Source of the DNA: Candidatus Omnitrophota bacterium
Lineage (GTDB): Bacteria; Omnitrophota; Gorgyraeia; Duberdicusellales; 4484-171
DNA length: 64,000 bases
Assembly (NCBI GenBank): GCA_041652815.1
Contig: JBAZGN010000001.1
Location: forward strand, 573,855-637,854
Reading direction: 5' to 3'
The notes below the pieces were generated by a model that saw only the letters and a program-made list of their open reading frames with translations, had not been told where the DNA came from and made no database searches. Of this stretch, positions 2,151 through 57,144 are shown in pieces. Each line of letters begins with the position of its first letter. The stretch's first letter is position 1. The translations under genes and the position numbers were made by a program.

Positions 2151-4193
2151 ATGGGTAAATTGTATTTTGTATTCGGAGTGCATAACCACCAGCCTGTAGG
2201 GAATTTCCCGCATATTTTTAAAGAAGCCTACGAAAAATGTTACTTTCCATTCCTTTCTCTCCTCGAAGATTTTCCCAAGATAAAGTTTTGTATTCATAAT
2301 TCCGGCCCGCTTTACGATTGGATGAAGGAGTACGGTAAGGATTACCTCACGCTTCTTAAGAAGATGGTTAAACGCGGGCAGGTTGAAATTGTAAGCGGAG
2401 GGTATTATGAGCCTATTCTGCCTATAGTTTCAGATTGTGATAAATATGGCCAGATTAATCTGATGAATGATTTCATAGAAAAGGAGTTTTCAAGTAAGCC
2501 TTGCGGCATATGGACCGCAGAGAGAGTTTGGGAGCCTTATCTGGCAAGAGTAATTGGCAATTGCGATTTGAAATATACATTTTTAGACGATACGCATTTT
2601 CGTTTCGCAGGCCTGCGAAAGCCGGAGTTCTTCGGATACTACACAACCGAAGACTGCTCCCAGTCGATATCTGTGTTTCCTATAAGTAAAACTTTAAGAT
2701 ATAAAATACCCTTTTCTGAGGCGCATGAAGCTTTCAGTGTTTTAGACGGCTTAAGGCAAGAAGATGATACGCTGATTACTCTTTTTGATGATGGAGAAAA
2801 ATTCGGGCTTTGGCCCGGCACTTACGATTGGATTTACAATAAAGAATGGCTTAAGAAATTTTTGACTTTTCTTAGCAATTCGGATGATATCGAAACCATA
2901 ACCGCAAAAACGGCTTTTGAAAAATTTAAAACTAACGGGATAGTTTATCTGCCTACAGCCTCTTACGAAGAAATGGGCGAATGGGTGTTAGAACCCAAAA
3001 ATTTCTTTGCCTATGAGGAGCTTCGCGATTTACTTAAAGCAAATGATAAGCTGGAAGAATATAAAGATTTTATAAGAGGGGGGTTCTTTCGCAATTTCTA
3101 TCATAAATACCCGCGGCTTAACTATATGCAGAAAAGAATGCTTTATTTAAGCCAAAAAATAAATACAATGGCAAACCCTAAGGTTGATAAGAAAATATTT
3201 ACCAGCCTTTACAAGGCGCAGACTAATTGCGGTTATTGGCACGGAGTCTTTGGGGGGTTTTACCTCGGGCATATCCGTTCGGCAGTATATGAAAATTTAA
3301 TCGATGCAGAAAATATGCTTGATGAAAAGTATAATAGCGAAAAAATAACAGTGGACTATGCAGACATAGATTTAGACGGCAAGTATGAAATAATGCTTAA
3401 GAATGATAAACTGATTTGTTGTTTTTCGCAAAAAGGCGCGGCTCTTTGTGAAATGAGTTTACGTAATCCCCGGATTAACCTTGTTAATACGATAACGCGC
3501 AGAGAAGAATCATACCATAAAAAGATTCTGCAGAATGTAAAAAAAGAAGGGGCTGTTGCTACGATTCATGACATAGTTAAACAGAAAGACAAGGATTTGG
3601 ACAAGTTCCTTATCTATGACCAATACGAAAGGCTTTCACTTATGGATCACCTTTTGGATAAAGGCATTACCGTAAGCGATTTTAATCTCCAAAAAGGCAT
3701 AAATACTTTAAGTGATGAACTATATGAATGGAAGATTAAGAAAGAAAGCCAAAAAGTAGCCCTTAACTGCAATTTTTCCAATGGTGGCTTGGATTTTTCG
3801 AAAATAATTGAATTCTCGCAAAATTGCGGTTTTGATATAAACTATAAATTTAACAGAAAAAATATCTTGAAGGATTATAATTTTGGTATAGAATTTAATA
3901 TATCATTATTATCGCTGGGAGATGTTTTTGCGAAAATAGGTAAGGAAGAAATAAGCCTATCTGAGCCACGCGAGTTTAAAGAGGTTGGTTCTTTTACAAT
4001 AGTTGATAAGTTTAAAAAGATAATTCTCGAGTTTAATTTCGATAAAGCGCACATCTGCAGCATGCCGGTATATTCGGTTTCTTCTTCAGAGTCCGGTTTT
4101 GAAAAAGTTTATCAGCAAATAGCAATTCTTTTTATTTTCAAAGGCAAGGATACTCTGAAATTTTCTTTGGACATTAAGCACAAACACAATTAA
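2151..4193 (+). CDS. Glycoside hydrolase family 57 (large, 680 aa; amylopullulanase / glucanotransferase-like)
   Basis: VFGVHNHQPVGNF N-terminal GHF57 motif. Third consecutive GH57 gene. Confidence 0.75.
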   Translation: MGKLYFVFGVHNHQPVGNFPHIFKEAYEKCYFPFLSLLEDFPKIKFCIHNSGPLYDWMKEYGKDYLTLLKKMVKRGQVEIVSGGYYEPILPIVSDCDKYGQINLMNDFIEKEFSSKPCGIWTAERVWEPYLARVIGNCDLKYTFLDDTHFRFAGLRKPEFFGYYTTEDCSQSISVFPISKTLRYKIPFSEAHEAFSVLDGLRQEDDTLITLFDDGEKFGLWPGTYDWIYNKEWLKKFLTFLSNSDDIETITAKTAFEKFKTNGIVYLPTASYEEMGEWVLEPKNFFAYEELRDLLKANDKLEEYKDFIRGGFFRNFYHKYPRLNYMQKRMLYLSQKINTMANPKVDKKIFTSLYKAQTNCGYWHGVFGGFYLGHIRSAVYENLIDAENMLDEKYNSEKITVDYADIDLDGKYEIMLKNDKLICCFSQKGAALCEMSLRNPRINLVNTITRREESYHKKILQNVKKEGAVATIHDIVKQKDKDLDKFLIYDQYERLSLMDHLLDKGITVSDFNLQKGINTLSDELYEWKIKKESQKVALNCNFSNGGLDFSKIIEFSQNCGFDINYKFNRKNILKDYNFGIEFNISLLSLGDVFAKIGKEEISLSEPREFKEVGSFTIVDKFKKIILEFNFDKAHICSMPVYSVSSSESGFEKVYQQIAILFIFKGKDTLKFSLDIKHKHN

Positions 4194-4218
4194 TGCGCCT
4201 GGCAGGTGCATTTTGAAA

Positions 4219-4305
4219 CGCAGATGATCACAGATGACAGACGCAGATGATCACAGATGATTTTATCTGCGATCATTTGTTTTATAATCTGTGCTAATCT
4301 GTGTA
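4219..4305. promoter_or_regulatory. Promoter-region word repeat ('family A'): 2x ACGCAGATGATCACAGATGA direct repeat, then ATCTGCGATCA, TATAAT-like box and AATCTGTGCTAATCTGTGTAA just upstream of the RBS
   Basis: Direct tandem 20-mers seen in sequence. The tail motif AATCTGTGYTAATCTGTGTAA recurs upstream of the gene at 55891, and ATCTGTGATCATCTGTGTAA upstream of 16111 and 27938. Confidence 0.55.
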
Positions 4306-4321
4306 ACAAGAGGAGGATAAA

Positions 4322-11140: not shown

Positions 11141-11200
11141 CCTTCAGTCGTCAGTCTTCAGCTATCAGCTGGAAGCTGAAGACTGATAGCTGAAAGCTGA
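11141..11200. repeat. Family B palindromic word repeat (cttcagtcgtcagtcttcagc ... gctgaagactgatagctgaaagctga)
   Basis: Nested inverted repeats seen directly. Upstream of the amrS-like gene. Confidence 0.6.
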
Positions 11201-15719: not shown

Positions 15720-15969
15720 AATAGTTATAATAATACAGTTTGGAGATTATTTTGCAATAGAAATATACAGCTGTCAGCCTTCAGCCGTCAGCTTTCAGTT
15801 CTATTTTTTTGCTGAAAGCCCCGCCACCTTATAAAAACATTTAAGCGGGTCAACCTGTTGGTTGAGAAGACTGATAGCTGACAGCTAGCCCAGAAAACCC
15901 TTGCAAAATAAAGGGGATTGTAATAAACTTTTGATACGCAGATGAGCACAGATTGGAAAGCGGACGATT

Positions 15970-16119
15970 ACAGATTTATTATTATCGTTTATGTACCACG
16001 TATCAGGTAACACGTAACAGGCCTTTACGGCGTGATACGTGTTACCTGATACGTGATACAGAATCTATGCTATCTGTGATCATCTGTGTAAGCCGAACGG
16101 AGTGAGGCAAATGAAATAT
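15970..16119. repeat. ~150-bp dispersed element, copy 1: 19-bp perfect palindrome CACGTATCAGGTAACACGT/ACGTGTTACCTGATACGTG, CTGTGATCATCTGTGTAA, RBS GGAGTGAGG and ATGAAATAT start
   Basis: ~94% identical to 27797..27946, mismatches concentrated in the right palindrome arm. Includes the first codons (MKY) of the downstream gene. Confidence 0.75.
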
Positions 16120-17310
16120 ATATTCATAGTTCCCGACGGAGCAGCGGATTATCCCAATGAAATTCTCGGCGGCAAAACTCCGCTGGAAGCTGCGGATAAA
16201 CCTTTTATGAACCAACTAGCAAAAGAAGGGGTATTAGGAAGAGTAAAAACTGTTCCTTCAGGATTTCAGCCGGCGAGTGATGTGGCAAATCTTTCGCTTC
16301 TTGGCTATGAACCGGAAAAGTATTATTGCGGCCGCGGCCCGCTCGAAGCCGCTAATTTCGGCATAACACTGGGGGAAGATGATTTGGCTTTTCGTTGTAA
16401 CCTCATTAGCGAGTCAGAAGGAAAACTTCTTGATTATAGCGCGGGGCACATCAGCGACAGAGAAGCCCGTATCCTCATAGAACATCTCGATAAAAATCTT
16501 GGAACAGAAGATATAAAATTTTATGCCGGAAAAAGTTACCGCCATCTTATGGTTTATAAAAAGGGAGTTAAGCTTTTATTGGAGAAGCTTAATTTCTTCG
16601 CTCCGCACGATATTATGGGTAGAGGTATTAAGAAGCATCTACCGTCCGGCCGTGGAAGCGAACATATAATTACGCTTATGAACCGTTCAAGAGAGCTTCT
16701 AAAAGACCACGAAATAAATAAAGTGCGTATAGATTTAGGAGAAAATCCTGCTAATATGATTTGGCTTTGGGGCGCGGGGCGCCGGCTCGCGATTCCTGCA
16801 TTTAAAGAAAAGTTTGCAATCTCCGGTGCAGTAATTTCCGCAGTTGACCTTATAAATGGCATTGGCAAAATCATAGGCTTAAAAGTTATTGAAGTTTCCG
16901 GCGCCAATGGTTATTATGATACGAATTATAAAGGCAAAGCTGAGGCAGCAATAAAGGCGCTGGATGATTGTGATTTCGTATTTATTCATATAGAAGCAAC
17001 AGATGAAGCCGGCCACAACAATGATTTAAGGATGAAAATTACCTGTATTGAACGGATAGACAAGCTTGTTGTAGGGACTATTGTGGAGAGAATGAAAGGC
17101 AAAGATTACCGGATTATAATTACACCTGATCATCCCACACCTGTTTCAAAACGCACGCATACAGATGAGCCTGTTCCGTTTGTTTTAGCCGGCCCCGGCA
17201 TAAATAGGCAGAATTTTTCCTCGTATTGTGAAGCAGAAGCCGCAAATTCAAGCCTCTACTTTGCAAGCGGGCCAGACCTGATGAATTATTTTCTAGGTAG
17301 TTTTCGCTGA
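16111..17310 (+). CDS. apgM: 2,3-bisphosphoglycerate-independent phosphoglycerate mutase, archaeal-type (ApgM family)
   Basis: Full-length cofactor-independent PGM (ApgM/COG3635) similarity. Start taken as the ATG inside the shared repeat (MKYIFIVPDG); the listed 16102 start is GTG. Confidence 0.8.
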   Translation: MKYIFIVPDGAADYPNEILGGKTPLEAADKPFMNQLAKEGVLGRVKTVPSGFQPASDVANLSLLGYEPEKYYCGRGPLEAANFGITLGEDDLAFRCNLISESEGKLLDYSAGHISDREARILIEHLDKNLGTEDIKFYAGKSYRHLMVYKKGVKLLLEKLNFFAPHDIMGRGIKKHLPSGRGSEHIITLMNRSRELLKDHEINKVRIDLGENPANMIWLWGAGRRLAIPAFKEKFAISGAVISAVDLINGIGKIIGLKVIEVSGANGYYDTNYKGKAEAAIKALDDCDFVFIHIEATDEAGHNNDLRMKITCIERIDKLVVGTIVERMKGKDYRIIITPDHPTPVSKRTHTDEPVPFVLAGPGINRQNFSSYCEAEAANSSLYFASGPDLMNYFLGSFR

Positions 17311-18701: not shown

Positions 18702-18775
18702 TAGTAGCACGTCGCATGTAACACGCATCAAGCCAAGGCGTGTTACTTGATACGTGTTACCTGATACGTGAACAA
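18700..18775. promoter_or_regulatory. Family A palindromic words upstream of cimA (GTAACACGCATCAAGCCAAGGCGTGTTAC hairpin + ACGTGTTACCTGATACGTG arm)
   Basis: Shares the exact 19-mer arm with the 15970 element. Confidence 0.55.
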
Positions 18776-20350
18776 ATGAAGAAAATATTTATCTACGACA
18801 CAACCTTACGCGACGGAGCACAGACCGAAGGCATTTCTTATTCGTTGCACGATAAAATTAATATCACTAAACGGCTTGATGATTTCGGTATAAGTTTTAT
18901 TGAAGGCGGATGGCCTTATTCAAATCCGAAAGATAAGGAGCTTTTTGAATATTTCAGAAAGCACCCTTTAAAAAAAGCCAAAATTGTCCCTTTCGGTTCT
19001 ACTGCGCATCCATCACACCCCGCGTCAAAAGATAAAAATCTGTTAAGTCTTGTAAAAAGCAATACAGAATACGTAACAATTTTTGGAAAAACCTGGGATT
19101 TGCACGTAAGAGATATCCTTAAAATACCGCTTGAGGATAACCTGAAAATAATTTTTGAAAGTGTAAAGTTTTTAAAAAAACAAGGCAAGAAAGTTTTTTA
19201 TGACGCAGAACATTTTTTTGACGGTTTTAAAGCTAATTCCAATTACGCATTAAAAACCATTCGTGCAGCACTTGAAGCAGGAGCAGATTTGGTTATTTTT
19301 TGCGATACAAACGGGGGAACGCTTACCTGGCAGGCGCTTGACATCATAAAACAGGTAAAAGAGGCATTATCCATAAATGATTTTGGAATGCATTGCCATA
19401 ATGATTTAGACCTAGCCGTAAGCAACTCTATTTCTGCCGTAAAATATGGCTGCAGCCATATTCAAGGGACAATAAATGGTTATGGAGAACGTTGCGGCAA
19501 TGCCGATTTGATTTCAATTATGGCGATACTTCAGCTTAAGATGGGTTATGATATCATACCTGCAAATAAAATGCCCACACTTGCGCATTTGTCTTATTAT
19601 GTAAGTGAAGTAAGCAATGTTGCTCATCACGATAACCATCCTTTTGTAGGTAAATCTGCGTTTGCGCATAAAGGGGGTATTCATATAGATGCAGTAATCA
19701 AAAATCCCCTGGCTTACGAACATATTTTGCCTTCCGCAGTAGGGAACAAAAGCAGGTTTATAGTTTCTGAATTAGCCGGAAAATCTACATTGGTAGTAAA
19801 AGCTAAGGAATTGGAATTTGATTTGAATAAAAAATCCCCGCAGGCAATAAGAATACATAAGCTTATACAGGAGCTTGAGAGGCAAGGCTATCAATTTGAA
19901 GCAGCAGAAGGCTCTTTTAAGCTTCTTTTGCAGAAAGAATTTAGAAAGTATAAAAAGTTTTTTAGCCTCCTAGGCTTTAGGGTCAGCGTTGAAAAAAGAG
20001 AAGATGGCCGTCTTATATCGGAAGCGGTAATTAAGCTTAAAATAAATGATAAATTAGAACATAGCGCCGCAGAAGGCGATGGCCCGGTTAATGCCCTGGA
20101 TAATGCTTTGAGAAAAGCGCTGGCTAAATTTTACCCGACTATTTCTAAAATGCATCTTACTGATTTTAAGGTAAGGGTTCTTGATGAGAAATGCGGCACC
20201 GCCGGAAAGGTGCGCGTGTTAATACAGTCGCAGGATGAGGATGAAGACTGGTCGACCATAGGCGTTTCGGAGAATATTATCGAAGCAAGCTGGCAAGCCC
20301 TGCTTGACTCTGTCGAATACAAACTCCTTAAAGACTCCAAGAATAAGTAA
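18776..20350 (+). CDS. cimA: (R)-citramalate synthase / LeuA-family HMGL-like enzyme
   Basis: IYDTTLRDGAQ N-terminus, ~525 aa with a C-terminal LeuA-dimer-like domain. Start moved to internal MKKIFIYD. Confidence 0.75.
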   Translation: MKKIFIYDTTLRDGAQTEGISYSLHDKINITKRLDDFGISFIEGGWPYSNPKDKELFEYFRKHPLKKAKIVPFGSTAHPSHPASKDKNLLSLVKSNTEYVTIFGKTWDLHVRDILKIPLEDNLKIIFESVKFLKKQGKKVFYDAEHFFDGFKANSNYALKTIRAALEAGADLVIFCDTNGGTLTWQALDIIKQVKEALSINDFGMHCHNDLDLAVSNSISAVKYGCSHIQGTINGYGERCGNADLISIMAILQLKMGYDIIPANKMPTLAHLSYYVSEVSNVAHHDNHPFVGKSAFAHKGGIHIDAVIKNPLAYEHILPSAVGNKSRFIVSELAGKSTLVVKAKELEFDLNKKSPQAIRIHKLIQELERQGYQFEAAEGSFKLLLQKEFRKYKKFFSLLGFRVSVEKREDGRLISEAVIKLKINDKLEHSAAEGDGPVNALDNALRKALAKFYPTISKMHLTDFKVRVLDEKCGTAGKVRVLIQSQDEDEDWSTIGVSENIIEASWQALLDSVEYKLLKDSKNK

Positions 20351-26163: not shown

Positions 26164-26232
26164 ATAGCTATCAGCCATCAGTCGTCAGCCTTCAGTAGCT
26201 GACAGCTGAGAGCTGACAGCTGAGAGCTAAAA
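26164..26232. repeat. Family B palindromic word repeat between ilvC and leuA
   Basis: atagctatcagccatcagtcgtcagccttcagtagctgacagctgagagctgacagctgagagct. Confidence 0.6.
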
Positions 26233-27732: not shown

Positions 27733-27796
27733 TTTACGCAAATTACTGCGAATTAAGAAATTCCTGCCAGCCGGCGGGGATGTAAAGCTGATGGTC

Positions 27797-27946
27797 ACAG
27801 ATTTATTATTACCGTTTATGTACCACGTATCAGGTAACACGTAACAGGCCTTTACGGCGTGATACGTGTTACGTGCGACGTGATACAGAATTTATGCTAT
27901 CTGTGATCATCTGTGTAAGCCGAACGGAGTGAGGCGAATGAAATAT
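27797..27946. repeat. ~150-bp dispersed element, copy 2 (right palindrome arm degenerate)
   Basis: Aligns base-for-base with 15970..16119 with about 9 substitutions. Confidence 0.75.
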
Positions 27947-28393
27947 GTAGTAAACGTAATTGCTATCTTTGTAGTAGTAATTATAGTTGTTCTTGCCGTA
28001 ACCTTCAGGAATAATACAGATAGGCTTCCCTTCCAATACGAAATCAAAAAATTTTTCAACGAATTCTCGCAAATGATAAAAACAAGGACTGCCAATGTCA
28101 AGATGGAGCTCGCTCCCTCAAGAAGAAAAAAAACCACCTTCATAGATAAAGAAGAACAATTACGCCAATTCATTCCGGATGTGTTTGGAAAATTCAGCGA
28201 ATCTGACTGGCGCAATTTCTGGTCATTTATTTACGACCCTGTTTACGACAAAAAGAGTAAATACGGCGGGAAAAGATACCGCACTAAAGAAGAAATCGAA
28301 AGTTTTCTTCGTAACCGGTTCTCTATCTTCAATTATCTTGATATCGGGCACTGGCATTATTTCTGGAGTATCGTGGATGTAAAGTTCGAATAA
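27938..28393 (+). CDS. Hypothetical membrane-anchored protein (one N-terminal TM)
   Basis: Shares its 5' UTR and first three codons (MKY) with apgM through the repeat. Confidence 0.45.
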   Translation: MKYVVNVIAIFVVVIIVVLAVTFRNNTDRLPFQYEIKKFFNEFSQMIKTRTANVKMELAPSRRKKTTFIDKEEQLRQFIPDVFGKFSESDWRNFWSFIYDPVYDKKSKYGGKRYRTKEEIESFLRNRFSIFNYLDIGHWHYFWSIVDVKFE

Positions 28394-31845: not shown

Positions 31846-31894
31846 TATGAATAATGCAATGGAAAGTTATTCTAATAATCATAAGGAGAAAAAA

Positions 31895-32329
31895 ATGAAA
31901 AAAATTGTATTTTTAATGGTATGTATACTGGTACTTTCTATTTCCTGTGCTAAGAAGGCCGAAAAACCTCAGTCGGATTTGGAATCTGAAATGATTATGC
32001 CGGAAGCTGGCAGCACGTTGGAAGCGCAACCAGCCGAAGGGGCAGTTGCGAAAGACGCTTTAACGCAACAGTTGCCTGCTCAGACAGTAGTTGTTCCTGA
32101 AAAGCCTTCTGCAGAAGACATCCAAAAAGCACTAAAGAATGCCGGTTTATATACAGGAAATATTGATGGCAAAATAGGCCCAAAAACAAAAAAAGCCATT
32201 GAGGCATTTCAGTCACAAAACGGTTTAACCGTTGATGGAAAAGTTGGTGCAAGAACTTGGGAAAAGCTTGGAGTTTATTTGACTAAAGTAGAGGACGCGC
32301 CATCTGCAACGAGTGGTAATCTTCAGTAA
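31895..32329 (+). CDS. Lipoprotein with C-terminal peptidoglycan-binding domain (PG_binding_1)
   Basis: Lipobox LSISC. LKNAG.YTG.IDGKIGPKTKKAIEAFQ..NGL..DG.VG..TW. Start moved to MKKIVFL after RBS AAGGAG. Confidence 0.6.
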   Translation: MKKIVFLMVCILVLSISCAKKAEKPQSDLESEMIMPEAGSTLEAQPAEGAVAKDALTQQLPAQTVVVPEKPSAEDIQKALKNAGLYTGNIDGKIGPKTKKAIEAFQSQNGLTVDGKVGARTWEKLGVYLTKVEDAPSATSGNLQ

Positions 32330-32397: not shown

Positions 32398-32535
32398 ATT
32401 AAAGAAGATACTTCGGACGCTCTTATTTATCGCGTCCTCAGTATCAATTCGCACTATCATTTTTTCTGCGCCACGCCCGCATAGCGGCGGTCAGGGCTTG
32501 AAAAAATGATGTGCCCATTGAGGAGGTGTTTAATG
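32398..32535. promoter_or_regulatory. Modular 5' leader, copy 1: conserved AAGATACTTCGGACGCTCTTAT(T/C)TATCGCGTCCTCAGTATCAATTCGC + variable long hairpin + conserved CATTGAGGAGGTGTTT RBS
   Basis: Same architecture at ~39056-39192 upstream of spoVG. The middle hairpins differ in sequence but each is a perfect ~10-bp stem. Confidence 0.6.
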
Positions 32536-32952
32536 TTTTCAAGGATTTTATTGTCCGTAGTAATTATTTTGGCCTTGGCAGGGTGCGCAACAACAAAGAA
32601 AACTGCTACAGGTAGCGAAGTAGAAGAGCTTCGAACGAAAGTTTCCGATCTCGAAAAGCAATTACAGGAAAAAGACGAAGAAGTCCGCGACTTGGAAGAA
32701 AGATTATCTAAGATAAAAACACCCGAATCAGAAGAAATAGTAAATGCACAGGAAGTAGACATTTCTAAGGTTACGCCAAAGAGAATTCAAACTGCTTTGA
32801 AGAATGCGGGATTTTATTCTGGTGCAATAGACGGGAAAATAGGCAGAAAGACCAAAGAGGCAATTAAAGAATTTCAAAAAGCAAATAATTTAAAGCCCGA
32901 TGGAATCGTTGGTAAGCAAACTTGGGCCAGATTGCTTAAATATTTAGAATAA
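32533..32952 (+). CDS. Lipoprotein with coiled-coil segment and C-terminal peptidoglycan-binding domain
   Basis: Lipobox LAGC. PG_binding_1 motif (LKNAGFYSGAIDGKIGRKTKEAIKEFQ). Paralog of 31895..32329. Confidence 0.6.
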   Translation: MFSRILLSVVIILALAGCATTKKTATGSEVEELRTKVSDLEKQLQEKDEEVRDLEERLSKIKTPESEEIVNAQEVDISKVTPKRIQTALKNAGFYSGAIDGKIGRKTKEAIKEFQKANNLKPDGIVGKQTWARLLKYLE

Positions 32953-33029
32953 TTATGGATAAAAAACCGGTTATTTCCTTTGTCAGCCTGAAAGCTGAAA
33001 ACTTGAAGGCTGAAAGTTTATCGAGAAGA

Positions 33030-33989
33030 ATGCTACGTAATAGCATTATAGGTTCTAGTTTATTCTTATCGATTTTTATTTTTTCAATCTTTATAGTTCC
33101 GGCTTTTGCAGGAACCAACGAAGAGAAAAAAAACGAAGATTTAAAGCTTCTTCAGGAAAAATTTACCTGGTGGCCGAGCGATGCGAAGCCTGATCCGGTA
33201 AAAGATGAAAAAACAGGAGGCTTCTGGTGGTGGCCAACTAATCCCGGCCAGGCATCACCCTGGGGAAATCGTGGTTATGTTTATGTCTACAAGATAATTT
33301 TTGATTATAAGGAGGAAGAGCTCCCACCGCCGCAGGCCCAGGAAAAAAGGCCATCGCTTCTCATTAAGAAAATAATCAAAAATGTAAAAGTGTATTTTGA
33401 TTTTGATAGCGCTATCTTAAGAGATGATGCTATAACCATATTGGAAGGCGCTGTAAAAACTTTGAACAAAAATCCGCAAACGAATATTCTAATAACCGGT
33501 AACTGCGATACCCGTGGCTCGGAAAGCTACAATTTAAAGCTCGGAAGTAAGCGTGCGTATTCAGTTAAGAATTTCATGATTGAAAATGGTATACCAGAAG
33601 AGCGTATTAAGATAGTAAGCCGAGGAAAGCTTGATGCCGTTAGCCCGGTAACAGACCTGCCGGGGATGCAAAAAGACAGGAATGCTCAATTTATGATTGC
33701 CGAGGTAGAAGAGGTTATGATTCCTTATAACGGAGAAGGCATGCCGGCAGATGCAACTCGAGTAGAAGAAGGAAAATTTGTCGAAGAGGTTGAGGAGCCG
33801 GTTGAGAGTGAAGTTAAAGTTTCAACAAGAGAGTATACGATAAAAAAAGGCGATACACTTTGGAAAATTGCAGAGCATGAGTTAGGTAAGGGGCACCGCT
33901 GGAAATATATCTATGAATTAAACAAGGATGTTATTAAAAACCCCAACAAACTTAAAGCGGGTAAGAAAATTTTGATACCAGTTGAATAA
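33030..33989 (+). CDS. OmpA-family protein with C-terminal LysM domain
   Basis: OmpA_C core (VYFDFDSAIL...GNCDTRGSESYNLKLGSKRA) and LysM (YTIKKGDTLWKIA). Start moved to MLRNSII; upstream codons lie in a family B repeat. Confidence 0.7.
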   Translation: MLRNSIIGSSLFLSIFIFSIFIVPAFAGTNEEKKNEDLKLLQEKFTWWPSDAKPDPVKDEKTGGFWWWPTNPGQASPWGNRGYVYVYKIIFDYKEEELPPPQAQEKRPSLLIKKIIKNVKVYFDFDSAILRDDAITILEGAVKTLNKNPQTNILITGNCDTRGSESYNLKLGSKRAYSVKNFMIENGIPEERIKIVSRGKLDAVSPVTDLPGMQKDRNAQFMIAEVEEVMIPYNGEGMPADATRVEEGKFVEEVEEPVESEVKVSTREYTIKKGDTLWKIAEHELGKGHRWKYIYELNKDVIKNPNKLKAGKKILIPVE

Positions 33990-37642: not shown

Positions 37643-38215
37643 ATGAATGAAACAGAACTTATAGGGCGCTGTATAAACAAGGAAAAACAAGCGTGGGATA
37701 TCTTTGTTGAGCGTTACAGCAGGTTGATTTATTGGGCAATCAGAAAACGGCTTAAGGCGAGCAGCTTTACATTTAGCGAAGATGATGTTCAGAATATTTT
37801 TCAGGAAGTATTTCTTTCTATCCTTGAAGGCGAAAAGCTTACTCAGTTAAGAGATGCCAAGCTGATTTGCAGCTGGTTGGCAATGATAGCTTCCAATAAA
37901 GCCTTTGATTTTATGCGGGGAACGCTTCGTAACAAGCAGCGTTTCATCGCAGATGTTATATTATTGAAGAATAAGGATTGCGAGCAAAATTTATCCGATA
38001 GAGAAACTATAAACATTCTAGAAAACATAATTAATACCCTCTCTGACCGGGAAAAAATCATTATTTCTTTGAATCTTCTTGAAGAAAAAACACATAAGGA
38101 AATTTCCGGTATCCTGGGGATACCCATTAATACCGCCTCAACCATAATTGCCAGGACTAAAGAAAAAATCAAAAAAGAACTGGGTAAATATGGAATAAGC
38201 GGGCAATCTATTTGA
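37643..38215 (+). CDS. ECF-type RNA polymerase sigma-70 factor
   Basis: Sigma-70 region 2 (IFVERYSRLIYWAIRKRL...FQEVFLSI) and region 4 HTH. Confidence 0.8.
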   Translation: MNETELIGRCINKEKQAWDIFVERYSRLIYWAIRKRLKASSFTFSEDDVQNIFQEVFLSILEGEKLTQLRDAKLICSWLAMIASNKAFDFMRGTLRNKQRFIADVILLKNKDCEQNLSDRETINILENIINTLSDREKIIISLNLLEEKTHKEISGILGIPINTASTIIARTKEKIKKELGKYGISGQSI

Positions 38216-38263: not shown

Positions 38264-38827
38264 ATGACAGAGATTGAAAATATACTAAAAAAGTACCTAA
38301 CGGCACGTTTTAATTCCGTCAGCCCGGAAAAGGACAGTAATTGCCCCTCAGAGGAAACTCTATTGGATTACATGGGGAATAAATTGTCAGGACAAGGGCT
38401 GATGCTTATAGAAGAGCATATTAGCGGATGCAGGTTTTGCCTATCGCAGCTGAGCTTGGCAATAGAGGCTAAAAGTCTAAGTAACGAACAATTTCCGTCT
38501 TTACCTAAAAATTTAATCGAAAAGGCAAAAAACCTTATTGGTATTGATAAGAATCTTCAGGCAGCTAAGGCAGCCAGAAAACGAAGAATGAAAAAGAACT
38601 TATTTCTTGCAGCAACAATCATATTTTTTATCCTTTCTTTTATCATTCATGAATATTTCATGCAATTTCTGGCTGGCGCGCTTATTCTCGGATTTCGCTG
38701 GGCGTTCGAAAGCGAAAGTGGCCGTACGCTTATCATGGTGCTTGATTCCTGGCGGAAGCATTCTCATGATGAAGATGACGAAATATCACGCCGCCTGAAA
38801 GACAGATTTTCCAAGCACGATTTGTAA
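38264..38827 (+). CDS. Putative zinc-finger (zf-HC2) anti-sigma factor with a single TM
   Basis: H.SGCRFC motif, TM at aa ~110-130, immediately downstream of the ECF sigma gene. Confidence 0.6.
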   Translation: MTEIENILKKYLTARFNSVSPEKDSNCPSEETLLDYMGNKLSGQGLMLIEEHISGCRFCLSQLSLAIEAKSLSNEQFPSLPKNLIEKAKNLIGIDKNLQAAKAARKRRMKKNLFLAATIIFFILSFIIHEYFMQFLAGALILGFRWAFESESGRTLIMVLDSWRKHSHDEDDEISRRLKDRFSKHDL

Positions 38828-39055
38828 AAGTTAAATAATTTTTTAAAGCCCGCCTTATTTATGCTTATCTAATTTACACTCCCAGGTAAATCCTCATATC
38901 TAAAAAATTAAAAATTTTTGAAAGAATTTTTCATGATGCCGCGTCTATTAAGTAAAGGGGATAGATAACTCATTTTACAAGATACTACCTATTCTAATGC
39001 GCTTCTAAACACAGCAACTGATGAGTTTTTTTGATTGACGGGAAAAGGGTTTGTT

Positions 39056-39192
39056 TATTAAAGATACTTCGGACGCTCTTATTCATCGCGTCCTCAGTAT
39101 CAATTCGCGCATACAACTTATGTTCGCCCTGCCTGCCAGAGGCAGGCGTAGCTGCCATAAGTTGTGCGCTCATTGAGGAGGTGTTTGCTATG
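39056..39192. promoter_or_regulatory. Modular 5' leader, copy 2, upstream of spoVG
   Basis: Conserved 5' module and CATTGAGGAGGTGTTTGCTATG 3' module identical to copy 1. Variable central hairpin acaacttatg...cataagttgt with inner gcctgcc..ggcaggc. Confidence 0.6.
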
Positions 39193-39447
39193 GGGTTAGA
39201 ATTCAAAGTTGCAAGGCTTCACAAATTTGATGGTAACGGCGCGATAAAAGCAATGTGTGATATCTCAATTTCTGATCAGCTTGTGGTCAAGGGTTTTAAA
39301 ATTATTGAGGGTAAAAACGGCTTATTTGTAGGAGTGCCGCAGGAAAAAGGCAAAAATGGCAAGTGGTACGATAACGTTTTTCCTTTAACGCCAGAAGTGC
39401 TTGAAACTATTAGAAAAACCGTGCTTTCTGCGTATCAGGGTGATTGA
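39190..39447 (+). CDS. spoVG: SpoVG-family protein
   Basis: KAMCDISISDQLVVKGFKIIEGKNGLFVGVP matches the SpoVG core. Start moved to internal MGLEFKV after GGAGG. Confidence 0.8.
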   Translation: MGLEFKVARLHKFDGNGAIKAMCDISISDQLVVKGFKIIEGKNGLFVGVPQEKGKNGKWYDNVFPLTPEVLETIRKTVLSAYQGD

Positions 39448-54465: not shown

Positions 54466-54606
54466 ATGAAGCTTTTTCGATTAAGAAAAATAAACCTAAA
54501 AGAACTTGTAACTTACAATTTTTGGCTTAAGCTAATTTCCTTGGTTTTGGCAATAATTGTCTGGTTGTACGTAAGCAGCGAAATAACTAAAGGCGTTAAA
54601 ATTTGA
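54466..54606 (+). pseudogene. 46-aa remnant resembling the N-terminal TM region of CdaR/YbbR (cdaA regulator); truncated where a family A repeat begins
   Basis: MKLFRLRKINLKELVTYNFWLKLISLVLAIIVWLYVSSE resembles YbbR N-termini. RBS GTGAGG upstream. The ORF stops at the first base of the CAGATGATCACAGATG repeat. Confidence 0.35.
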
Positions 54607-54680
54607 TACACAGATGATCACAGATGGTAGACGCAGATGATCACAGATAAAAATCTGCGATTATCTGTATACTAAAAAAG
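54605..54680. promoter_or_regulatory. Family A repeat (ACACAGATGATCACAGATGG TAG ACGCAGATGATCACAGATAA + ATCTGCGATTATCTGTATACT) upstream of pdxJ
   Basis: Near-copy of the 4219-4305 arrangement. Confidence 0.55.
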
Positions 54681-55409: not shown

Positions 55410-55763
55410 ATGGTAATGGGCATAGGCATAGATATGGTTAAGGTGGGGAAAATGCAAAGCGCCATTGAAAAGTGGGGTAAGGATTTTCTTAAGCGCGTTT
55501 TTGATAGTAAGGAACTGAAAAATATATCTGACGGAAAAATGTATTATCAGCGTTTGGCTGCCAGATTTGCCGCAAAAGAGGCAGTGATTAAGGCGATTTC
55601 AAAAGAATACCCACTGGCATTAAACGACATAATAATACTTAATCGTAAAAATGGCGCTCCTTATTGTGAGTTCAAAAAAAAGCTTGATGTAGAAATTTTA
55701 CTTTCAATAAGCCACATTGAGGATTATGCTGTGGCTTGTGCTGTTGCGCAGAAACACAGATGA
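55410..55763 (+). CDS. acpS: Holo-[acyl-carrier-protein] synthase
   Basis: GIGIDMV N-terminus and RFAAKEAVIKA core. Confidence 0.8.
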   Translation: MVMGIGIDMVKVGKMQSAIEKWGKDFLKRVFDSKELKNISDGKMYYQRLAARFAAKEAVIKAISKEYPLALNDIIILNRKNGAPYCEFKKKLDVEILLSISHIEDYAVACAVAQKHR

Positions 55764-55890
55764 TCGCAGAAGCAAAACAGATGATCGCAGATTTTGAGAA
55801 AGTATCATGTAACACGTCTTTAAAAACGTGTTACATGCTACGTGTGGCGTGATACGTAATCTGTGTTAATCTGTGTAAAGCAAAAATAAG
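55760..55890. promoter_or_regulatory. Family A repeat block (2x CAGATGATCGCAG; GTAACACGTCTTTAAAAACGTGTTAC hairpin; AATCTGTGTTAATCTGTGTAAAGC) upstream of nnrD, overlapping the acpS stop
   Basis: Seen directly. Confidence 0.55.
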
Positions 55891-56751
55891 ATGAAGCTGC
55901 CGAAACAACTAATAAAGCGTAAACTTGACACCTATAAAGGCGATTATGGTTATGTTTTTGTTTTGGGAGGCTCGCCGGGGCTAACCGGAGCAGTTTCTTT
56001 ATGCGCAAATGCCGCTTTAAGGATGGGCGCGGGTTTAGTAAGAGCAGCAGTTCCCGCATCCCTCGGTAATATACTCTCAACTAAACTTACAGAAGCGACA
56101 AGCCTTTTTCTTAACGAAGAAAATGGTTATCTTTCGGAAAAAGGCTTTCAGCAAATAACCGATTTGTTAGAAAGGATAGACGTAGTTGCTTTAGGTGGAG
56201 GAGCTTCTCAAGCTCCATGTGCTCAAAAGCTACTTTTAAAAGTAATTAAGAATGTCGACAAGCCAATGGTTATAGACGCAGATGCTTTAAACGCAATTTC
56301 TACTGTTTTAACCGTTTTGAAAGAAAGAAAATCAAAAAATATAGTTTTAACTCCGCATCTGGCTGAATTTTCCCGCTTAACCGGGCTTACGCTTAAAGCA
56401 ATAAAAGCAAAAAGAAAAGAACTTGTCAAGGAATTCGCTTTTAAGTATAATTTAACCCTCATTCTTAAGGGCAATCGCACCCTTGTAAGCAATGGCAAAA
56501 CGTTATTTGAAAATAATACCGGCAATCCCGGTATGGCAACAGCAGGTTGCGGCGATGTGTTGACAGGTATTATTGTCGGCTTAATGGCTCAAGGTATAGA
56601 TGTACTTACGGCAGCGAAGTTTGGGGTGTATATACACGGCTTAGCCGGTGATTTAGCTGCAAAAGATAAAACCGAAACCTGTTTGATTGCTTCCGATATA
56701 ATTGAGTATTTACCGAAAGCAGTAAAGAGATTAGCAACACGTAACACGTAA
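55891..56751 (+). CDS. nnrD: ADP-dependent NAD(P)H-hydrate dehydratase (YjeF C-terminal domain)
   Basis: KGDYGYVFVLGGSPGLTGA...GCGDVLTG motifs. Confidence 0.75.
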   Translation: MKLPKQLIKRKLDTYKGDYGYVFVLGGSPGLTGAVSLCANAALRMGAGLVRAAVPASLGNILSTKLTEATSLFLNEENGYLSEKGFQQITDLLERIDVVALGGGASQAPCAQKLLLKVIKNVDKPMVIDADALNAISTVLTVLKERKSKNIVLTPHLAEFSRLTGLTLKAIKAKRKELVKEFAFKYNLTLILKGNRTLVSNGKTLFENNTGNPGMATAGCGDVLTGIIVGLMAQGIDVLTAAKFGVYIHGLAGDLAAKDKTETCLIASDIIEYLPKAVKRLATRNT

Positions 56752-56863
56752 CAAGTAACACGTATCACGTTTCTAAAAACGTGTTACCTCCACTCCAAGT
56801 GGACTCACCTAAATATTTTTATATGGTGGCGAGGATACATGTGACGTGATACATGATAAATGC

Positions 56864-56936: not shown

Positions 56937-57144
56937 TTAAACACAGATGGTCACAGATTGGAAATCACAGATGAGCACAGATAGATTGTGTATCACGTCG
57001 CACGTAACACGTATCACGCCTTTTTAAATTCTCTGTTTATTCAATGACGTGTTACGTGATACCTGTTACCTGATACTTTCTCAAATCTGTGATCATCTGT
57101 TTTGTAAATCTGTGATTATCTGTGCAAAACGATCTGTGAAAAAC

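Follow-up and report, generated by a model that had tools for sequence, protein, structure and literature searches.

Several kinds of short structured sequences are known from the spaces between prokaryotic genes. Repetitive extragenic palindromic (REP) sequences and bacterial interspersed mosaic elements (BIMEs), the latter being mosaics of REP hairpins, are found in either orientation, for the most part after genes, and are associated with RAYT transposases. The intercistronic RNase III sites of phage T7 and the 5' stabilizers of the ompA, ermC and SP82 type leave hairpins at RNA ends, with the ribosome site downstream. The Correia (NEMIS) elements of Neisseria have been proposed to be targets of RNase III, and the enterobacterial repetitive intergenic consensus (ERIC) elements of Yersinia to act through RNase E exposure, altering the processing or stability of adjoining cistrons (PMC2229807, PMC3049150). 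The pneumococcal BOX elements (boxA-boxB(n)-boxC) have reported effects on the expression of co-transcribed genes (PMC3049150), and near-identical upstream regions that stand before non-homologous genes, within and between related genomes, have been described as mobile promoters (PMC3575422). Here we report on a pair of structured leaders in a 64,000-nucleotide stretch of DNA, hereinafter the window, from a Candidatus Omnitrophota bacterium (assembly GCA_041652815.1, contig JBAZGN010000001.1, positions 573,855 to 637,854 of the forward strand), one upstream of a gene for a peptidoglycan (PG)-binding lipoprotein and the other upstream of spoVG, and on the family to which both belong. In our best reading, this family is an interspersed, modular and orientation-locked RNA element that is specific to a clade of Candidatus Omnitrophota and previously undescribed.

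Like the Correia/NEMIS and ERIC elements, the Omnitrophota unit is shorter than 200 nt, is present in many copies in transcribed spacers, including those within operons, forms predicted stem-loops in mRNA and displays presence/absence polymorphism. However, those elements possess terminal inverted repeats (TIRs) and target-site duplications (TSDs) and are found in both orientations, whereas the Omnitrophota unit has no TIR between its ends, no TSD at the sites compared and is essentially always in sense; moreover, it usually abuts the Shine-Dalgarno (SD) sequence, also precedes tRNAs and shows no sequence similarity to them. Its modular and mosaic build, with conserved end modules, a variable or repeatable middle, extra hairpins and modules that fold largely by themselves, is akin to that of BOX and the Escherichia coli BIMEs. 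Nevertheless, BOX has TIRs similar to those of an insertion sequence and gives rise to TSDs, while the Omnitrophota modules are ordered 5' to 3' and end at the downstream ribosome-binding site, and, unlike REP/BIME, the copies lie in sense upstream of gene starts. With the T7 sites and the 5' stabilizers the unit shares a hairpin with an internal loop between cistrons, a likeness of form only; its invariant feature, a 2x2 loop of pyrimidines between closing pairs U-A and G-C, is not among the described determinants of RNase III. As in the case of mobile promoters, it recurs before non-homologous genes, but no promoter was found inside it or at a fixed distance from it, many of its copies are operon-internal, and the reuse is of an RNA leader or spacer, not of a promoter. 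Riboswitches and RNA thermometers likewise comprise a structured leader beside the SD with covarying helices, yet the Omnitrophota unit differs from them in its insertion polymorphism and in having no conserved ligand pocket of several helices. What is new in relation to the known interspersed repeats is the sense lock, the fit between stop codon and SD, the occurrence in tRNA leaders and the twice-repeated pyrimidine internal loop.

Architecture of the two leaders and of the family

An initial reading of the window made from the sequence alone (the sequence-only reading) had divided the leaders, at 32398-32535 and about 39056-39192, into three modules with an identical ribosome-binding module at the end, and this layout held in both copies. 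The first hairpin (P1) of copy 1 (32406-32445, + strand; 77.7 bits, E 1e-17 with our covariance model R1) reads A-GAUACU-UC-GGACGC-UCUUAUUUAUC-GCGUCC-UC-AGUAUC, i.e. an outer helix of 6 bp, a UC/UC internal loop, an inner helix of 6 bp and a loop of 11 nt. The GGACGC...GCGTCC hairpin noticed earlier is present, and GATACT...AGTATC constitutes a second helix that lengthens it across the symmetric UC/UC internal loop; P1 of copy 2 (39062-39101, + strand; 77.0 bits with the same model) differs by a single loop base (TCTTATTTATC versus TCTTATTCATC), where two variable positions had been called. The second hairpin (P2) directly follows P1. That of copy 1 (32446-32521, + strand), AAU-UC-GCAC-U-AUCAUUUUUUC ... 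GAAAAAAUGAU-GUGC-CC-AUU-GA, is of the type termed A below and was delineated by folding, covariation among 26 homologous P2 and RNAalifold; its foot shows the U-UC-G / C-UC-A motif once more, but with CC on the 3' side where UC is usual. That of copy 2 (39102-39176, + strand), AAU-UC-GCGC-AUACAACUUAUG ... CAUAAGUUGU-GCGC-UC-AUU-GA, is of type B and was delineated by folding and by homology to the P2 hairpins at the purS|purQ junctions of L033, L053 and L058 (L numbers denote the related loci), in which a compensatory change of U-A to C-G is seen. The central hairpins had been described as perfectly paired; they are indeed paired, with long and perfect lower stems, but not perfect throughout, interrupted as they are by internal loops and by a bulge of U or UA.

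The start module of copy 1 (32522-32535, + strand) consists of the SD GGAGG at 32522-32526, the spacer UGUUUA and the ATG at 32533-32535, and that of copy 2 (39177-39192, + strand) of GGAGG at 39177-39181, the spacer UGUUUGCU and the ATG at 39190-39192. A 16-nt ribosome-binding module, CATTGAGGAGGTGTTT, is the same in both, and in each copy GGAGGUGUUU leads into the start codon. In the window there are exactly two occurrences of the 46-nt 5' module, as against none in 100 dinucleotide shuffles, and the folding z-scores of the copies are -5.4 (copy 1) and -4.1 (copy 2). No third copy in the 64-kb window emerged from regular-expression searches or from two covariance models applied unfiltered.

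Across the family, P1 is a 40-nt hairpin with an almost invariant base, (A)GAUACU-UC-GG...CC-UC-AGUAUC, and a freely variable top, whose form differs with the subfamily: a loop of 4 nt, one of 9-11 nt or a nested hairpin. In an initial set of 34 distinct P1, the forms taken by the inner helix are GGACGC/GCGUCC, GGAUGC/GCAUCC, GGCUGC/GCAGCC, GGGAAC/GUUCCC, GGCAGC/GCUGCC and GGGCGC/GCGCCC; the pairing of this helix reaches 99.5% (slid controls: 26-48%), and 22 cells are doubly changed. Since the base of P1 was fixed by the search patterns, a covariance model was built to find divergent copies. When run over the collected sequence it detected about 10 divergent P1, in which the outer helix covaries too (GAUCCU/AGGAUU, GAUCUU/AAGAUC and GGCACU/AGUGCC). 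The alignment of 55 P1 sequences, which was fitted to the covariance model and is to that extent biased toward the structure, is 99.4% paired (slid controls: 30-47%) with compensatory changes in 8 of its 12 pairs, and the only pairs in it without any variation are the U-A and G-C that close the UC/UC loop. This loop is found in 53 of 54 P1 and 23 of 26 P2; together with its closing pairs it makes up the invariant core of the family, the U-UC-G / C-UC-A internal loop, which is found in P1 and repeated at the foot of P2.

P2 has an interchangeable body on a constant foot, AAU-UC-G...C-UC-AUU(GA). Its bodies are of at least four unrelated types, including type A (CACUGUGAUUUUUUCUGCGCC...), type B (GCGCAUAUAACUUAUGUGCGC...) and type C (GAUCUAGCAUUUUUU...), along with short forms. 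The central hairpins of the window pair had been taken to covary with each other; they belong to different types, A and B, and it is within each type that covariation is observed. In the 26 P2 of types A and C, the pairing amounts to 94.6%, as against 83% in shuffles and 31-50% in slid controls, with 10 compensated pairs. RNAalifold, applied to 17 full-length units, recovered P1 and P2 independently and left UCAUUGAGGAGG...AUG unpaired; that the AAU and AUU at the foot pair to close P2 is our inference. The left and right ends of the unit (AGATACTTCGG and CTCATTGA) are not reverse complements of each other, every module being its own palindrome. In the window copies P2 is succeeded by CCCATTGAGGAGG or CTCATTGAGGAGG with no T-run. 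This and the placement of the central hairpins inside a unit oriented with the downstream gene dispose of the counter-explanation that they are terminators of the upstream genes.

The accessibility of the start module bears on the possibility of a translational riboregulator, in which the 5' arm of P1 (AGAUACUUC), or the CCUCA of P1, would pair with the SD region (UGAGGAGGUGUUU) and close the ribosome-binding site, to be opened by the formation of P1, by temperature, by a ligand or by an upstream ribosome terminating at the abutting stop codon. A closed three-way fold is the predicted minimum-free-energy structure for both window copies and several others, the CCUCA in the 3' arm of P1 is complementary to UGAGG, and the helix-extending spacer UGUUU recurs at three genes unrelated to one another, namely the PG-binding lipoprotein gene, spoVG and rpmE. 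However, the SD is free in the consensus fold of the family, the extended complementarity is missing from most copies, P1 is conserved before tRNAs and in copies devoid of an SD, and the downstream genes have no common theme. Further, the predicted fold flips upon inclusion of 10 more coding nucleotides, and temperature has little effect on it over the range of 10 to 50 C. The difference between the open and closed folds is no more than about 3 kcal/mol, and given this instability to the flanks we dropped the fold prediction as evidence for a switch; a riboregulator of this kind appears very unlikely.

The strand asymmetry of P1 speaks to a different alternative, namely that the element acts at the DNA level as a palindromic protein-binding or recombination site, e.g. 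an attC-like one, or functions through an antisense transcript with tandem G.A loops. Its intergenic location in the midst of co-oriented genes and its combination of a conserved structure with a variable center lend it a superficial likeness to the attC sites of integrons. In an antisense RNA the UC/UC would become GA/GA, a stable RNA motif, which counts in favor of that version. Yet the reverse strand of P1 scores 12-14 bits, as opposed to 77, with covariance model R1, and the conserved TC/TC breaks the dyad symmetry of the element in DNA, contrary to what would be expected of the site of a dimeric double-stranded-DNA binder. G.U outnumber A.C in the pairs, and the orientation is tied to the strand of the downstream gene. 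The neighbors are core housekeeping genes (rho, rpmE, gyrB/A, grpE/dnaK and rpoC/rpsL) rather than cassettes, and there are no GTTRRRY-type ends, the core sites of attC being RYYYAAC...GTTRRRY. We regard an action at the DNA level or in antisense as next to untenable.

Distribution, gene contexts and turnover of the family

The search for further copies, which the sequence-only reading had proposed, brought the family to 51 distinct members. An exact-pattern scan of one genome per species across 185,579 species returned 11 loci: 8 in the metagenome-assembled genome (MAG) STB_55, 2 in another Omnitrophota MAG and 1 in a MAG labeled "Planctomycetia". A scan of Joint Genome Institute (JGI) metagenomes with a looser pattern returned 38 more, and these 49 further loci together with the window pair yielded the 51 copies upon removal of duplicates, with STB_55 alone harboring 8-9. 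The locus labeled "uncultured Planctomycetia bacterium" (L021, CAYGRZ010000016.1) encodes a GyrA that is 75-91% identical to Candidatus Omnitrophota/Omnitrophica proteins, which suggests that the bin is probably mislabeled or mixed. As this GyrA is closest to that of Omnitrophota, there is no evidence of the element outside the phylum, and, counting L021, all members of the family come from Candidatus Omnitrophota. The homologues of its SpoVG place the window itself in this phylum. The nearest proteins of the YebC linked to the GGGAAC subfamily are also from Omnitrophota. A scan of viral contigs gave 0 matches. Rfam 15 at its gathering score recovered only tRNA and tmRNA in the window and 15 related loci, and at E<=10 there were just chance-level matches to the two leaders, located outside the core of the element; the family thus has no match in Rfam. 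In the searchable literature no prior description of the element was found, the sole hits being chance primer matches and a methods sentence in PMC10066038.

The sequence-only reading had seen in the two leaders the hallmarks of a functional RNA, and the compensatory changes in both hairpins bear this out for the family as a whole. We are confident that this is a genuine family of structured RNAs and neither a riboswitch nor a terminator.

In terms of genomic position, every copy with an identifiable flanking gene lies in sense directly upstream of a gene. In most copies the end is formed by CUCAUUGAGGAGG, with 5-9 nt between it and the start codon, and the leaders measure 69 to about 160 nt. 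In the window, copy 1 precedes a gene for a 139-aa lipoprotein with a PG_binding_1 domain (32533-32952, + strand; Pfam PF01471, E 6e-22), whose orthologues in L026, L044 and L046 are also preceded by the element, and copy 2 precedes spoVG (39190-39447, + strand; 85 aa; Pfam PF04026, E 6e-20). The downstream genes of the whole set belong to more than 20 unrelated families: SpoVG, the PG-binding lipoprotein, rubrerythrin, the ribosomal proteins L31, L32 and S12, NusA, GyrA, DnaK (HSP70), RRF and PurQ, as well as CBS, GGDEF, DUF2934, DUF4870, DUF2582, secretin, ExbB, YebC, PIN-TRAM, STAS and response regulator proteins. In 45 of 48 copies the gene upstream is encoded on the same strand, and Pfam-based annotation places the element at the operon junctions rimP|nusA, rho|rpmE, gyrB|gyrA, grpE|dnaK, purS|purQ, rpoC|rpsL, radA|PIN-TRAM and rsbW-like kinase|STAS. 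In about 16 copies P1 starts between -2 and +9 nt from the upstream stop codon, the AG of AGAUAC sometimes completing a UAG.

Four tRNA genes, in L015, L034 and L040, have divergent P1 sequences immediately before them. Further, a few canonical units (in L015, L016/L043, L041 and L056) lack an adjacent SD; from these and the tRNA-linked copies it follows that any conserved function of P1 is not translational only. The tRNA-linked P1 form a subfamily of their own, GGCACU-UC-GG..CC-UC-AGUGCC, sometimes in tandem, and are found at 239-279, 3823-3863, 3961-3999 and 4004-4044 of L015, 617-657 of L034 and 174-309 of L040. They are followed by a second hairpin with a conserved AAUAAGGAAUAAC word in its loop, which ends at or near the 5' end of the tRNA.

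Two of the cis-regulatory classes that the sequence-only reading had offered as examples are not supported by the full family. A riboswitch would not be expected before more than 20 unrelated gene families and tRNAs, with replaceable apical parts and a presence that varies at orthologous sites; a candidate ligand core is also missing, members having in common just two simple hairpins with no shared junction or pseudoknot. The thermosensor finds no support as the SD is unpaired in the consensus and the sequestering fold, predicted for some copies, is flank-dependent and not family-wide. The third, a protein-binding leader, may hold and comes close to the reading we prefer.

These contexts also have a bearing on whether the element is a portable 5' leader or mobile promoter cassette, in which P1 would be a 5'-terminal stabilizing stem-loop just after the promoter, reused before highly expressed genes. 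In L024/L051 and L038 the upstream genes are divergent, and the element must lie in a 5' untranslated region (UTR). TAnnnT hexamers ending 11-13 nt before P1 are in excess (14 observed versus 4.4 expected), a TATAAT is located 7 nt before the hairpin of the tRNA-linked copy of L034, and the reuse of promoters is documented in prokaryotes (PMC3575422). Nevertheless, a logo anchored on P1 across all copies revealed no -35/-10 at a fixed distance, the weak TAnnnT excess being the only signal, and neither window copy has a match to the sigma-70 consensus, nor indeed any consensus promoter or terminator-like site on the + strand. About one-third of the copies abut the same-strand upstream stop codon, which leaves no room for a promoter in them.

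In the case of spoVG there is, further, a promoter-like motif well ahead of the element: TGAAAG-N17-CGTCTA (38919-38947, + strand), which on the strength of the general consensus of extracytoplasmic function (ECF) sigma factors we take to be an ECF-type promoter. It is located about 115 nt upstream of P1 of copy 2 (about 40 nt in L002), and P1 is therefore internal to the spoVG UTR. Taking this evidence together, the portable leader seems decidedly unlikely. The motif (TTTTGAAAGAA-N-CGTCTATTA) lies between a sigma/anti-sigma pair and spoVG, the pair being an ECF sigma gene at 37643-38215, with Sigma70_r4 domains, and a putative anti-sigma gene at 38264-38827. It is conserved upstream of spoVG in every orthologous locus, L002, L006, L007 and L009 among them, whether the element is present or absent, which suggests that spoVG may be controlled by the neighboring ECF sigma in this clade.

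The occurrence before nusA, ribosomal protein genes and tRNAs would also be in keeping with a transcription antitermination or RNA-polymerase-modifying leader of the nut/boxA or put type that, set before highly expressed genes, operon-internal junctions and tRNAs, would keep the polymerase processive. The inner stem and loop of the main subfamily read CGCUCUUA, presumably identical to the boxA word of phage lambda, which we retain only as a lead, and the two adjacent stem-loops recall the architecture of the HK022 put sites. However, CGCUCUUA is confined to the ACGC subfamily; the loops of the GGGAAC-UUUC, GGCAGC and tRNA-linked subfamilies are unrelated to it, and none of these three has the word. 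It is the base of the hairpin rather than the loop that is conserved, the boxA-like word is partly base-paired, and the usual adjacency to the SD would go unexplained. An antitermination role is in our estimate highly unlikely.

The element has a history of gain, loss and shuffling of modules. In L002-L005, whose spoVG orthologues are 94% identical, P1 is accompanied by an extra hairpin, a P2 of type A and the SD module; in L006 (89%) a different first hairpin is followed by an AAUUCG-P2; and in L007-L010 (85-88%) the element is absent, and the same ECF-type motif is followed only by a leader that is short and plain. Likewise, in L045 a 90-nt element extends from the stop codon of rnhA to the SD of yebC, while in L060, L061 and L063 (YebC 94%, 88% and 78% identical) the rnhA|yebC gap is of 10-25 nt with an ordinary SD. 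No P1 is found across 73 kb of L060-L063, L063 coming from a complete 1.5-Mb genome. In L041, the unit between rho and rpmE (3225-3264, - strand) is flanked, about 60 nt upstream and 50 nt downstream, by two copies of the last ~50 nt of rho, of which the second is degenerate and non-coding, with the right junction at an ATTGA common to the end of the element and rho. This duplication is possibly the footprint of an insertion, arising through microhomology or duplication rather than by a cut-and-paste mechanism.

The family thus has many dispersed copies, shorter than 200 nt and present or absent between related genomes, as do MITEs (miniature transposable elements with inverted repeats) and other interspersed repeats. 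Hence, the alternative of a selfish repeat, be it MITE-, REP- or BOX-like, with no host function and surviving only where its site and orientation do no harm, has to be given weight; the harmless site would be the spacer from a stop codon to the following ribosome-binding site, provided that transcription is not terminated and the SD not hidden. In its favor are the presence/absence differences at orthologous sites, the mosaic modules with extra hairpins between them (L002, L017, L018, L031, L036 and L044), the swap of the P2 type at spoVG (B in the window versus A in L002) and the reversed arm order of a type-B P2 palindrome in L027. To these may be added the rho duplication of L041 with its ATTGA microhomology and the patchy lineage distribution, as in the stretch of L060-L063 free of the element. 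On the other side, no TIR was found between the unit ends, no short TSD at the filled and empty rnhA|yebC and spoVG sites, where the spacer from stop codon to SD is replaced, and no conserved target word of the IS200/IS605 type at the left flank. Similarly, no associated transposase was seen, although no systematic search for one was made. The orientation is almost completely sense and the internal-loop core is conserved across subfamilies with wholly different tops, which argues for selection on a recognized RNA feature going beyond a mere transposition signal. A purely selfish repeat is in our view unlikely, if a serious rival; even so it would be out of the ordinary in its locked orientation and in its exact fit to the gap from stop codon to SD.

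A candidate junction element in transcripts

An invariant helix base with a specific internal loop under a free top has the look of a recognition site for a protein or nuclease, and the occurrence of the motif twice in each unit likewise leads us to favor a junction element that engages a trans-acting factor. We tentatively propose, with somewhat less than even confidence, that the unit is a cis-acting junction or leader element for the processing, the stabilization or the presentation of the ribosome-binding site of the RNA downstream of it. It would act in cis within the transcript, its two hairpins folding autonomously, such that the downstream ribosome-binding site might be insulated from the upstream sequence and exposed as a single strand where P2 ends. 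A hypothetical protein acting in trans, in all likelihood either an endoribonuclease or one that binds RNA, could then recognize the invariant internal loop in its two repeats. As a consequence, the downstream cistron or tRNA precursor would gain its own hairpin-protected 5' end, and its expression would be uncoupled from that of the upstream gene. This is the mode of action ascribed to the Correia/NEMIS elements (PMC2229807, PMC3049150), and also to the RNase III sites of phage T7 and the 5' stabilizers. What the sequence comparisons establish is the family itself, with its structure, orientation, positions, gene contexts and insertion polymorphism; the predicted action in RNA, the binding of a factor and the putative effects on processing, stability or translation are all deduced from them.

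Several points weigh against this proposal. Every functional step in it is inferential, and the partner protein that would recognize the loop is itself hypothetical. With 6 bp, a loop and 6 bp more, P1 is shorter than the typical substrates of RNase III. The near-invariance of the P1 base is in part imposed by the exact-match patterns used to collect the copies, the variation stemming from only about 10 divergent copies detected by the covariance model. The three AAU/AUU closing pairs of P2 are invariant and hence without support from covariation, and RNAalifold omits them. The counts of G.U versus A.C (9:3 and 16:9) favor the sense strand only mildly. A weak match to a divergent P1 in L040 (8-64, + strand; 24.9 bits) faces the 3' end of a convergent tRNA gene, the sole apparent exception to placement in sense upstream of a gene. 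Finally, gain and loss along with the shuffling of modules are exactly what is expected of a selfish repeat.

A more specific and bolder version of the junction element is that P1 is a lineage-specific punctuation signal in RNA, with a dedicated endoribonuclease or RNA-binding protein of Omnitrophota cutting or marking the boundaries of cistrons via U-UC-G / C-UC-A, which is found twice in each unit and also in tRNA leaders; this we consider unlikely. Were it true, it would amount to a genome-wide, sequence-coded system that uncouples the genes of an operon and has spread as its signal was duplicated, with each downstream mRNA or tRNA precursor acquiring a defined, hairpin-capped 5' end.

The Omnitrophota are uncultured, and next to nothing is known of the control of gene expression in them. 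The sharply defined invariant core is suggestive of a specific partner, and might offer a handle on a new RNA-processing or RNA-binding factor. Placed as it is at textbook operon junctions, the element could set the relative expression of adjacent genes, and it may represent a natural example of a portable cassette combining an insulator with a ribosome-binding site.

Neighboring genes and other repeats of the window

The gene downstream of copy 1 is the second of two neighboring PG_binding_1 paralogues, the first of which (31847-32329) ends 76 nt before P1. The segment 31847-33989 comprises these paralogues (31847-32329 and 32533-32952) and a gene for an OmpA-LysM protein (32955-33989). The leader element stands between the two paralogues, as it does in the similarly arranged L044 and L046.

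A second and unrelated class of intergenic repeats in the window consists of long imperfect palindromes, 120-170 nt in length, composed of recurring short words, the outer ones being CACAGATGATC / GATCATCTGTG and the inner ones GTAACACGT / ACGTGTTAC / GATACGTG. They are located at 4212-4306, 15931-16091, 18704-18777, 27781-27949, 54602-54671, 55750-55878, 56741-56787 and 56937-57127, upstream of genes and on either side of tRNA genes. The palindrome at 15925-16095 has a predicted folding energy of -77.7 kcal/mol (z -10.4) and that at 55745-55885 a z-score of -4.3, and 27781-27949 is a 93% copy of 15954-16122. Similar palindrome words occur beside the leader element in relatives, upstream of it in L042 and downstream in L041. 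In addition, short tandem or dispersed repeats of the type GCTGACAGCTGAAAGCTGA are found in the intergenic regions at 2113-2145, 11161-11200, 15866-15888 and 26198-26230.

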